Shown here in pieces: positions 50,115 to 61,533 of a stretch of 64,000 bases of DNA (its first letter is position 1; every line of letters begins with the position of its first letter). The stretch comes from Dehalococcoidia bacterium (lineage in GTDB: Bacteria > Chloroflexota > Dehalococcoidia > Lucifugimonadales > UBA3495). Below the pieces are notes generated by a model. It saw only the letters and a program-made list of their open reading frames with translations. It was not told the origin of the DNA and did no database searches. Made by a program: the position numbers and the translations under genes. The stretch is taken from assembly GCA_963664175.2 (NCBI GenBank), contig CAXXOI010000013.1:9784-73783 (forward strand), in the 5' to 3' direction.

Positions 50115-51260
50115 ATGGCGCGTGGGACGAATAGGCAGCGTTCGAAAGTCAGGAAGGACTCGTGGACCGTCCAGGTCTACACCGGTGTGGACCCCAACAC
50201 TGAGAGGAAGCGCTATTACTTAAGAAGCTGTCAAGGGGACCAAGACCTTGGCCCAGCACCGACTGACCGAGTTGCTGCGCGAAGTGGACACAGGTACGTT
50301 CGTGGAGCCCTCTCGCCAGACGGTGGCTGCATATCTCGAGCAATGGCTCCGGGATTCAGCGGCGCCCCGTGTCTCCAGCCGTACGCTGGAGAGCTACAAG
50401 GGTAATGTTGATCGCTACCTCGTGACCAAGCTGGGTGAAGTTCCTCTGGAAAAACTTGCCCCTCGTCACGTGCAGGAAATGGAAGCTCAACTCCTAAAGA
50501 AAGGCGGTAGAAATGGAGGGCCACTTTCACCCCGGACCGTGGTCCAAGTCCACAGAGTCTTATCCAAGGCAATGAACGACGCAGTCAAGCTCGGAATCGT
50601 GTTCAGGAACGCGGTCGATGCTGTTGGGCCTCTCCGTACGACCAAGTACGAGGCGCTGTTTCCGGGCTGGGAAGAGGTGCACGCTTTCCTGGACCAAATA
50701 ACGGACCCGCTGCATCAGACCCTGGCCTTGCTGGCCATTCAGACGGGGCTGCGGAGGTCCGAGTTAAGGGGACTCCATTGGAGAGACATTGATTTTTGTG
50801 CCAGCACGCTGTCCGTGCGAAGGGCGCTAATCAAGCTGGCATCCAGCGCGACGGAATTGGAGGTGCCCAAGAATGGCCACGGACGAGTAGTTGACTTGCC
50901 TTCAGAGTCGATCGAGGCTTTGAAGGCTCACCGGGAACGAAATCGGGATACCTCGGGGATTGGCAATTTCGTTTTTTGCCATTCTGATGGGTCTCCCCTC
51001 GATCCTGACCTTGTAAATCAAGCGTTTGAGCGCCTGGCGAAAAGAGGTGGCCTGCCAGGGTTGAGGCTCCACGATCTGCGCCACACTCACGCCTCCTTGA
51101 TGATGTCTCAAGGTATACACACCAAGATAGTCTCCAAACGGTTGGGTATAGTTCCATCGGAATAACGATTGATTTATACTCGAATGTGTTGCCAGCGGTA
51201 CAAGGAGAGGAATTAAGCCATTTGGGGGCTCAGTGGAAGAAAAGGAATGGCAAAAGAATG
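50115..51260 (+). pseudogene. Tyrosine integrase, copy 2, two frameshifts
   Basis: MARGTNRQRSKVRKDSWTVQVYTGVDPNTERKRYYL, then a +1 shift at TTAA (about 50219-50222) into ORF 50248..51165 (GLRRSELRGLHWRDIDF, LRLHDLRHTHAS). A 1-nt deletion near 51147 (GGTTGGGTATAG versus GGTTGGGGTATAG in copy 1) removes the catalytic-Tyr segment from the frame. Confidence 0.9.
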
Positions 51261-51305: not shown

Positions 51306-51402
51306 GGGAGTGGATGGGGCCCGGTGGCCCTTGCGGTCTTCAAAACCGTTATGCCTCGTTAGAAGCGGGGTAGGTGGGTTCGACTCCCTCGCACTCCCGC
51401 CA
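51306..51402 (+). tRNA. selC: tRNA-Sec (anticodon UCA), 97 nt including encoded CCA
   Basis: Acceptor GGGAGUG / CACUCCC, discriminator G, CCA. A 6-bp D stem GGGGCC/GGCCCU with the 4-nt loop CGGU. Anticodon loop CUUCAAA (same as E. coli selC). Long variable arm. GGUUCGACUCC T-loop region. One mismatch each in the 8th acceptor pair and in the T stem. Confidence 0.85.
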
Positions 51403-52900: not shown

Positions 52901-53578
52901 CTATTCCTCTTCCAGCATTCTGGCGACAATCGTATCCAGTTGCTGCCGGTCGATTGCGCCGGTCCAGGATTGGAACACCACCCCTTCGGAATCGATGAAT
53001 ATGGTGGTCGGCATTGCCCGAATACGGTATTTAGAAGTGATCGTCGCGTCATCCGTGTACCCGGCAGGGTAGGTGACGCCCAGAGAATCCAGCAATCTGC
53101 CGGCGTCCTTGGGAGAGCCCAGGCCGGTGAATTGCCCGATGTCGATGCCCAGCAGTCTCAACTCATCTCCCCTCTCCTCGTAGAAATCCTGCAACTCCGG
53201 CATCTCTTTCCAGCAGGGCCCGCAGAGCCGCGCCCAGAAGTTGAGCACTATGGGTTGGCCAGTTATGTCGGACAAACTCAACTCGGTGTCTCCCAGGGTT
53301 TCCTGTCCCTGAAAGAGCTTTAGCGGAAAATCTGGAGCGGTTGCACCGACCAGATTGCTGGTCCCCACGGGATCCGGGGCCAGGCTAGGCGCGGGAGTGG
53401 GCCGAATCGTCGTAGCCGGCTCAGACGTGGAATGTCCGGAGGAGGTTACGGTAGATTCCGGGGATTGGGAGGAACTGCAGCCGATTGCCAGAACGGAGAG
53501 CAGGGCACCGGACACCAAGAACACACCGAGCACGCGCCCGGTTTTGGCCAAACGCAAAGAAAGCGCGGAGAGTTTCAT
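52901..53578 (-). CDS. TlpA/ResA-like thiol:disulfide oxidoreductase lipoprotein
   Basis: Signal plus lipobox (LSVLAIGCSS). IVLNFWARLCGPCWKEMPEL is a thioredoxin-fold CxxC. Confidence 0.85.
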   Translation of the reverse strand: MKLSALSLRLAKTGRVLGVFLVSGALLSVLAIGCSSSQSPESTVTSSGHSTSEPATTIRPTPAPSLAPDPVGTSNLVGATAPDFPLKLFQGQETLGDTELSLSDITGQPIVLNFWARLCGPCWKEMPELQDFYEERGDELRLLGIDIGQFTGLGSPKDAGRLLDSLGVTYPAGYTDDATITSKYRIRAMPTTIFIDSEGVVFQSWTGAIDRQQLDTIVARMLEEE

Positions 53579-60405: not shown

Positions 60406-60443
60406 TGGATTAGAATAGCCGCATCACCTGAGGAGGGGCAACT

Positions 60444-61085
60444 ATGGCCAGCCAGGAGATCGCGCCAGGGTTTGAACGAGAGGCATGGGTTTCCATCCCC
60501 ACGGAGGCGGAGCATCGGGCCAACCTCCCTCCCGGCGCCCGGGGAGGCAACTACGACTTTGGCTACCTGCCCGCCATGGGCCGGTTGCAGGCCAGGCATA
60601 GGGAAATCGGCCCACTGTTCGGAGCGCTGTATCGACAGGTGATGTTCGGGCCCGGTGAGTTGGACCGGCAGGAGCGGGAGATGGTGGCGGCCGTGGCGGC
60701 TGCTGCCCAGGACTGCAGGTATTGAACCGTGTCCCACGCAGAGTTTCTGCGTGCCGAGGACGGGGACCCAGCCATCGTGGAGGCGGTAACCCACCGACGT
60801 TGGCGGGACCTGCCATCGCTGACGCCCAGACATCTGGCGCTGTGCACCGTGGCGGAGAAGCTGAGCGCCACGCCTACACGGATGGTGGAGGCCGACTGGC
60901 AGTCCCTGCGCGACCTGGGCTTCGACGACGTCGCGCTGCTGGAGGTGGGCCACATCGTCGGAATATTCAACTACCTGACCCGCCTGGCCGACGGCTTCGG
61001 GCTGCAGCTCGACCGGCGCACCATCGAGGCCTCGGAGACCGGGGTGTCGCTGCGACAAATGGCCGAACAGGCAGCGGACGACTAG
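60444..61085 (+). CDS. AhpD-like/carboxymuconolactone-decarboxylase-family 'peroxidase-related' protein with in-frame TGA (60723-60725) in a CxxU motif; candidate selenoprotein
   Basis: Track ORFs 60444..60725 and 60729..61085 are in the same frame, separated only by TGA-ACC: ...RQEREMVAAVAAAAQDCRY[TGA]TVSHAEFLR... This matches the family motif (S/A)xxNxCxYCxxxH with the TGA at the second Cys. Confidence 0.7.
60731..60761 (+). promoter_or_regulatory. SECIS-like hairpin downstream of the AhpD-like TGA
   Basis: CACGCAG-AGUUU-CUGCGUG (7 bp, 60735-60753), extended by GUCC/GGAC (60731-34 / 60758-61). The loop G lies 18 nt after the UGA. Confidence 0.5.
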
Positions 61086-61095
61086 GAGGGAGACA

Positions 61096-61533
61096 GTGAT
61101 ACAACTCACCGACGAAATGAAACGCCTGGTGAACAACGCCCGGGAGGACGGGTTTCCCAGCATCGTGGCGACCGCCTCCGCTGACGGCACGCCCAACGCC
61201 GGCTACATCGGCACCGTGCTGGCGGTGGACGACTCCACGTTCGTCTACAGGGACCGCACCCGCCGTCAGCCGCTGGAACACATCGAAGAAAACGCCAAGG
61301 TCATCTTGCTGTTTCGGAACGCCACCGTTGACGCGGGGTGGAAGTTCCGATGCACCGCCAGCGTTGAGCGACAGGGAGCTGTGTATTACGAGATGACGCA
61401 ACGCCTTGCCGACGCCGGGCTGATCAACGACCCCGAGATGGTGGGTGCCGCTATCGTGGTGCTGCGCATCGATCAGGTGCTGACGCTGTTCGGAGAGGTG
61501 CTGCAGGAACGAGAACCGGGAATGCGGTGGTAA
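61096..61533 (+). CDS. Pyridoxamine 5'-phosphate oxidase-family (split-barrel flavin/deazaflavin-binding) protein
   Basis: FPSIVATASADGTPNAGYIGTV...VILLFRN pattern typical of the PNPOx-like fold. Assignment by eye. Confidence 0.65.
   Translation: MIQLTDEMKRLVNNAREDGFPSIVATASADGTPNAGYIGTVLAVDDSTFVYRDRTRRQPLEHIEENAKVILLFRNATVDAGWKFRCTASVERQGAVYYEMTQRLADAGLINDPEMVGAAIVVLRIDQVLTLFGEVLQEREPGMRW

Follow-up and report, generated by a model that had tools for sequence, protein, structure and literature searches.

A gene split by an in-frame UGA in a Dehalococcoidia genome very probably encodes an AhpD-like selenoprotein

Two open reading frames that follow one another in the same frame, with only TGA-ACC between them, raise the question of whether they are a single gene whose internal UGA is read as selenocysteine (Sec) or whether the TGA is an ordinary stop. 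Such a pair lies in the 64,000-nucleotide stretch of a Dehalococcoidia genome analysed here (assembly GCA_963664175.2, contig CAXXOI010000013.1, positions 9,784 to 73,783; ‘the window’). A preliminary description of the locus had joined the two frames into a product of 213 amino acids, and the sequence confirms this: the TGA is followed by ACC and then by GTG at position 60729, and the frame stays open until a TAG, so that positions 60444-61085 of the plus strand form one open frame once the TGA is read through, encoding 213 residues including U94 (Table 1). Around the UGA the read-through product is AAAQDCRY-U-TVSHAEFLR. Inspection of the sequence upstream of the GTG at 60729 revealed no Shine-Dalgarno element comparable to the GAGGAGG that precedes the ATG. 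We are confident that the locus is a single gene for a 213-residue, all-helical oxidoreductase of the AhpD/CMD fold and the TIGR01926 family, whose UGA would be decoded as Sec through SelB and the stem-loop at 60735-60753, with Sec94 acting as the nucleophile in a redox cycle with Cys91. A motif scan for other TGA-joined pairs of open reading frames in the GC-rich window returned 59 candidates, nearly all of them noise.

Table 1. Features of the AhpD-like locus and of the Sec machinery of the genome. Positions are those of the window unless a contig is named.
Feature	Position	Strand	Basis and remarks
Shine-Dalgarno GAGGAGG	60430..60436	+	7 nt 5′ of the ATG at 60444; read from the sequence
AhpD-like CDS, predicted selenoprotein (TIGR01926, CMD fold)	60444..61085	+	TAG stop at 61083-61085; profiles, AlphaFold2, Foldseek, dN/dS
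In-frame UGA, very probably read as selenocysteine U94	60723..60725	+	TGA in the same column in 79/80 species loci (best 80 of 274) and in L014 and L016
Cys91 codon, first residue of CxxU, presumed resolving cysteine	60714..60716	+	Invariant in 41 sequences; TGC/TGT in 82/82 Sec forms
Glu79 codon	60678..60680	+	E-x11-C spacing; almost invariant in the 41-sequence alignment
Predicted bacterial SECIS upper stem-loop, CACGCAGA-GUU-UCUGCGUG	60735..60753	+	Inside the codons for His98 to Arg103; pairing, synonymous constraint
Possible SECIS lower stem GUCC/GGAC, weakly supported	60731..60761	+	Folds in the window; 75% of cells paired among orthologues
selD	Contig C41:73623-74543 (locus L009)	-	Hairpin about 20 nt past its UGA
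tRNA-Sec, anticodon UCA	51306..51402	+	ARAGORN; Rfam RF01852, 69.8 bits (gathering score 47)
PNPOx-like split-barrel flavin-binding gene	61096..61533	+	Pfam PF01243, E 1.5e-12; own GGAGG site

Profile searches placed the joined product in a known family. It scored 107.9 bits against the NCBIfam model TIGR01926 (‘peroxidase-related enzyme’; cut-off 81.8), and the Pfam CMD domain (PF02627) was found over residues 59-137, that is, across the UGA, with 38.7 bits against a cut-off of 23. The C-terminal open reading frame searched by itself matched no Pfam family. The motif E79...C91-R-Y-U94-T-V-S-H98 fits the AhpD pattern E-x11-CxxCxxxH with U in place of the second cysteine; together with the CMD and TIGR01926 matches, it bears out the initial view that this is the CxYCxxxH motif of AhpD/CMD proteins with UGA at the second Cys codon. 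C91, column 94 and H98 were invariant in an alignment of 41 sequences, and E79 was nearly so. The AlphaFold2 model built from these 41 sequences (pLDDT 91.7, pTM 0.88) is all-helical and unbroken across position 94. When it was compared with solved structures by Foldseek, 6K40, 3C1L, 2PFX, 2OYO and 2PRR were retrieved at a probability of 1.00 with TMt values of 0.76-0.86, the best match being 6K40 (TM 0.76/0.86). Sequence comparison with 6K40 and 2OYO showed a cysteine aligned with U94 in both.

Conservation of the UGA was assessed by a DNA-level scan in which each GTDB species was represented by one genome and which yielded 274 related loci. Among the best 80 of these, examined at the UGA column, 79 had TGA at exactly this position with the sequence conserved on both sides, and the remaining one had TGC; orthologues therefore do not end here as genuinely shorter proteins. 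These 80 loci come from Dehalococcoidia, Binatia, Deltaproteobacteria and Thermomicrobiales, among other groups. When the class was sampled evenly, five of the 121 genomes, counting that of the window, had a close orthologue, and all five carried the TGA; two further loci, L014 and L016, have it as well. Comparison with 32 in-clade orthologues gave a dN/dS of 0.048 for the 78 codons 5′ of the TGA and of 0.069 for the 105 codons 3′ of it, at a dS of about 1. Such strong purifying selection on each side indicates that both halves are translated in this frame. One Dehalococcoidia orthologue (G125:C8:33464-34048) carries a TAA besides the TGA and may be a genuine pseudogene.

At this position six loci (L095 and L101-L105) have TGC, and the proteins P0003, P0006, P0007, P0009, P0010, P0019, P0042 and P0073 have Cys in the aligned column. 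Alignment of Cys and Sec orthologues, which the preliminary description had put forward as a check, thus finds a cysteine opposite U94 in full-length homologues as well as in solved structures such as 6K40.

The same description had noted a 7-bp hairpin with an AGUUU loop just past the UGA and a loop G 18 nt after it, and both details hold on the sequence. The helix at 60735-60753 is perfect and can be drawn either as 8 bp closing a GUU loop or as 7 bp closing the AGUUU loop; it begins 9 nt past the UGA, and the loop G60743 lies 18 nt past the A of the UGA. The bSECISearch rule for the distance of the loop from the UGA is 16-37 nt. As expected of a bacterial SECIS, the hairpin lies directly 3′ of the UGA, and its small apical loop contains a G. 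Folded alone, it has a free energy of -10.8 kcal/mol, and a 71-nt stretch that includes it gave a z-score of -2.33 against shuffled sequences. A search of positions 60600-60900 against Rfam, with E-values up to 10, returned three chance-level matches and no SECIS family, a weak negative given that Rfam 15 may hold no such model.

The hairpin is located within the conserved peptide H-A-E-F-L-R, so amino-acid conservation alone could mimic conservation of the RNA. Synonymous codon choice separates the two. From +4 to +9 relative to the UGA, the codons of 82 Sec forms have an entropy of 0-0.58 bits, against 1.4-2.1 bits for the four- and six-fold degenerate codons (Ala, Val, Arg and Leu) in the flanks. 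Arg+9 is CGT in 79 of the 82 and Phe+7 is TTT in as many; Ala+5 is encoded by GCA or GCG only, and either third base can pair with the opposite U. Such choices are unusual for this GC-rich gene, in which CGG, CGC or CGA account for most of the remaining Arg codons. All 83 Sec forms scored for pairing keep 7-8 of the 8 pairs, against 4-6 of 8 in five of the six Cys forms, the peptide of which is identical or very nearly so; the degraded hairpins of the Cys forms use codons such as GCC, TTC and CGG. The sole exception among the six is L103:1044-1679, which has TGC (Cys) and retains a perfect hairpin, and looks like a recent switch from TGA to TGC, that is, from Sec to Cys.

Over 81 distinct orthologous sequences, 97.4% of the cells of the upper helix are paired, and the exceptions are G-U/U-G wobbles and one compensatory change from C-G to U-A (L085). 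Since the helix is almost invariant, there is little true covariation, with this single double change. The extension of the hairpin to 60731-60761, also part of the preliminary description, is feasible for the window sequence, yet over the same 81 sequences no more than 75% of its cells are paired, and we do not count the lower stem as an established element. Two lines of evidence make the case for a SECIS: the suppression of synonymous variation and the contrast with the Cys forms, the latter drawn from 6 loci. Judged by these sequence patterns, the hairpin appears to behave as a selected RNA element, conserved and synonymously constrained in the Sec forms, with selection confined to the forms that carry UGA. 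The HAEFLR codons, frozen in 82 Sec forms of several phyla and relaxed in most Cys forms, make an unusually clean natural experiment on bacterial SECIS elements, and the dataset could help train predictors of SECIS and selenoproteins.

Most of the Sec machinery is present in the draft genome (3.59 Mb in 60 contigs, 92% complete). Profile searches detected selA (538.5 bits) and selD (379.1 bits), and the latter is itself Sec-containing (motif SHCAGUAAK). The loop of its predicted SECIS lies farther from the UGA than that of the AhpD-like gene; both distances agree with the values commonly given for bacterial SECIS elements. The genome has one tRNA-Sec, and it is located in the window. About 140 nt separate this tRNA gene from the end of a preceding tyrosine-recombinase (phage-integrase-like) open reading frame, 50248..51165 (+), and so the region that the preliminary description had called an island may be integrated at or beside tRNA-Sec. 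Also close to tRNA-Sec, at 52901-53578 (-), is a TlpA-like lipoprotein gene with a WxxLCGPC thioredoxin motif in its Cys form.

Presence of selABD had been proposed as a further check: selA, the Sec-containing selD and tRNA-Sec were found, but selB was not detected with TIGR00475 and PF09107 in the 60-contig, 92%-complete assembly. PF09107 gave no match, and the TIGR00475 matches in the genome were rejected as SelB, reading instead as EF-Tu, IF-2 and TypA. An open reading frame with EF-Tu domain 2 beside locus L015 was likewise dismissed as a SelB fragment, being an 85-residue stand-alone barrel protein. All 20 relatives searched, 12 of them of the same genus, have a selB above cut-off. When the 20 kb round selB of one same-genus genome (G012) were aligned to the genome of the window, contig C51 was matched through to its final base (33028), and the alignment picked up again at the end of C43 (38764) and in C6; the 8.6-kb stretch of G012 that holds selB (L106 6335-14943) was unmatched. 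With selB in 20 of 20 relatives and a syntenic flank that ends at the end of a contig, its absence is best explained by an assembly gap and not by gene loss; we infer such a gap as the likely cause, and it is well supported.

These data bear on the possibility that the UGA is read through without selenium, by a near-cognate Trp or Cys tRNA, by Cys carried on tRNA-Sec under selenium limitation, or through a recoding signal that is not a SECIS. TGA terminates 498 of the 1217 long open frames of the genome and is thus not reassigned genome-wide. Locus L015:261-893, where the Sec column holds GGA (Gly) and the hairpin is slightly weakened, indicates that the position can change, though this copy may be inactive. 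Against selenium-free decoding stand the cysteine in non-UGA homologues, which forms a classic Cys/Sec pair with the UGA, a hairpin of SECIS geometry that appears to be under RNA-level selection in UGA forms only, a genome equipped with selA, a Sec-containing selD and tRNA-Sec, and the fact that the family is catalogued as a CxxU selenoprotein (PMC13188914). We regard it as very unlikely. Family membership, the Cys column, conservation of the TGA, the hairpin and the machinery all favour the original proposal of one gene with an in-frame UGA for Sec, and we infer incorporation of selenium at this codon.

How would such a protein be made and work? During translation, SelB with Sec-tRNA(Sec) would bind the stem-loop at 60735-60753 and deliver Sec to the ribosome at the UGA in place of termination. 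The Sec94 selenolate would then attack an oxidised substrate, either a peroxide or the sulfenate or disulfide of a partner peroxidase, with His98 and Glu79 as the putative proton relay. Cys91 may resolve the product to give an internal selenenylsulfide, from which a cellular dithiol reductant would regenerate the enzyme. In M. tuberculosis AhpD, Cys133 is the nucleophile and is activated via His137, a water molecule and Glu118. We take Sec94 and His98 to be the counterparts of Cys133 and His137 and, by motif spacing, Glu79 to be that of Glu118 in the proton relay. We know of no activity assay on a member of this exact Sec-containing clade. Among characterised proteins the nearest is DR1765 of D. 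radiodurans, the knock-out of which is sensitive to H2O2 and is complemented only when the CxxC motif is present (PMC8945050). On the strength of this relationship, a role in peroxide or disulfide redox chemistry appears most likely for the AhpD-like selenoprotein.

The genomic neighbourhood was examined as well. The flanking genes are intact, as first noted, and are syntenic in 32 related species. The order within the clade is SDR, orf196, epimerase, AhpD-like, PNPOx, orf81 and LLM. The PNPOx-like gene starts 10 nt past the stop of the selenoprotein gene, and the two are probably co-transcribed. Their adjacency is kept in the 32 in-clade species and was not seen outside the clade; at one distant locus of the Cys form, L101, a PNPOx_N gene is likewise found alongside, which hints weakly that the two may work as a pair. 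As the order of neighbours holds only within the clade, we treat it as synteny and not as evidence of function. No genes for ahpC or a lipoamide system adjoin the AhpD-like gene, its neighbours being the epimerase, the PNPOx-like gene and a luciferase-like monooxygenase.

A different function on the same fold was also weighed, namely that of a selenol-dependent reductive dehalogenase, in which the AhpD/Bmp8 fold would serve deiodinase-like chemistry instead of peroxide or disulfide redox defence. Iodothyronine deiodinases provide a precedent for Sec-dependent dehalogenation. The Bmp8 debrominase (6OHJ/6OHI) has the AhpD fold and was matched by Foldseek at TM 0.72/0.81, and many of the closest orthologues come from metagenome-assembled genomes (MAGs) with UUID-style isolate names, and one comes from ‘Candidatus Poriferisocius’. 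We take these to stem from projects on symbionts of marine invertebrates or sponges, where organobromines are presumably abundant. Were the protein a dehalogenase, symbiotic Dehalococcoidia and other Sec-rich bacteria would detoxify or respire organohalogens, and the near-exclusive use of Sec (79/80 species, the best 80 of 274 loci) would mean that the chemistry of reducing carbon-halogen bonds requires selenium. Yet the protein is no more than 16% identical to Bmp8, and it has closer neighbours, in structure and in sequence, in 6K40, 2OYO and 3C1L, which are AhpD-like proteins of the peroxidase-related kind; the genes adjoining the AhpD-like gene include none for halogen metabolism, and orthologues also occur in Binatia and Deltaproteobacteria from soil and groundwater. 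There is, in our estimate, only a slight chance that the enzyme is a dehalogenase.

Protein databases present the family in a misleading form. Our protein search returned two types of relatives: full-length proteins of about 195-213 residues with 55-64% identity, and many entries of 117-118 amino acids that are 84-90% identical to the query but align with no more than its C-terminal 55%. The short entries are C-terminal halves, such as gene callers produce by stopping at the Sec codon. In the full-length homologues the aligned column is C, W or G. For P0004 (JGI), which has W at the Sec column, the underlying DNA confirms a TGA translated as Trp, and the W of P0005 and P0033 (JGI) presumably arose by the same reading of TGA. 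Public sets thus carry the family in two wrong forms, either as C-terminal halves or as full-length proteins with W (P0004, P0005, P0033, P0008-P0018 etc.). The gene is mis-called as two hypothetical open reading frames here and in most public assemblies, or given W at the Sec position, so that a redox enzyme is under-represented in the catalogued proteomes of these Dehalococcoidia; the finding is chiefly of practical value in this respect.

That the locus should instead be a decaying pseudogene, or two separate small genes of 93 and 118 amino acids with the TGA as an ordinary stop, accords with its splitting by gene callers in most public assemblies, with the use of TGA as a normal stop in this genome and with the missing selB, but has next to no chance of being right in view of a TGA kept in 79 of 80 species of several phyla (the best 80 of 274 loci), a dN/dS of about 0.05-0.07 on either side, a CMD domain and predicted fold that span the stop, a GTG at 60729 without a ribosome-binding site, a C-terminal piece that matches no Pfam family, and the existence of full-length Cys homologues.

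The single-gene, Sec-containing reading agrees with what has been described elsewhere. AhpD-like CxxU proteins were reported from the Sargasso Sea as a new selenoprotein family with 27 sequences (PMC1088965); in the GOS data ‘AhpD-like 1’ (COG2128, CxxU), with 299 sequences, was the fourth most abundant prokaryotic selenoprotein family (PMC2398784); and a 2026 review lists ‘AhpD-like protein, TIGR01926, CxxU’ (PMC13188914). The preliminary description was therefore correct that such selenoproteins are known from metagenomic surveys. With ‘AhpD-like, TIGR01926, CxxU’ catalogued, and known from marine metagenomes since 2005, the gene is best seen as an un-annotated, split member of a known family. 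Neither its family nor its motif nor the way in which its UGA is recoded is new, and the finding opens no new question. According to BSepDB, Dehalococcoidia including UBA1141 are among the bacteria richest in selenoproteins (PMC13326102). The UBA1141 genome carries an orthologue at locus L057, and the present gene adds to the evidence for large selenoproteomes in some Dehalococcoidia (PMC13326102).

Compared with known systems, the predicted recoding element resembles the SECIS of the E. coli fdhF type in being an intragenic stem-loop just 3′ of the UGA with an apical-loop G at a fixed short distance, presumably bound by SelB; it differs in having another sequence, a perfect 8-bp helix, a 3-nt (or 5-nt) loop and no obvious bulged U. 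With the AhpC reductase AhpD of M. tuberculosis (1GU9/1KNC) the protein shares the core of the CMD fold and the E-x11-C-x2-C-x3-H motif, but the relationship is distant (Foldseek TMq 0.49 and E 0.057 to 1GU9), and this distance together with the lack of an adjoining ahpC sets the protein apart from the canonical AhpC-reducing AhpD. NF041238 (AhpD_rel_CFYUT, the Sargasso ‘hypothetical protein 1’) is related through its C-terminal AhpD-like domain, which contains a C-x-Y-U-T motif, whereas its members are about 357 residues long against the 213 of the protein described here; the latter scored 60.1 bits against a cut-off of 175 and aligned only to model positions 181-344 of 357, and was not assigned to that family. 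DR1765 (6K40) is the best match both in sequence (E 1.7e-21) and in fold (about 30% identity in the Foldseek comparison), of similar length and with the motif ER-E...CxYCxVSH, but it has Cys where the present protein would have Sec, and it lacks a SECIS. The AhpD-like selenoprotein family itself (‘AhpD-like 1’, COG2128/TIGR01926) has in common with the gene the match to TIGR01926, the CxxU motif, the Cys/Sec pattern and a SECIS hairpin with a loop G close downstream of the UGA, and in nothing essential does the gene differ from it.
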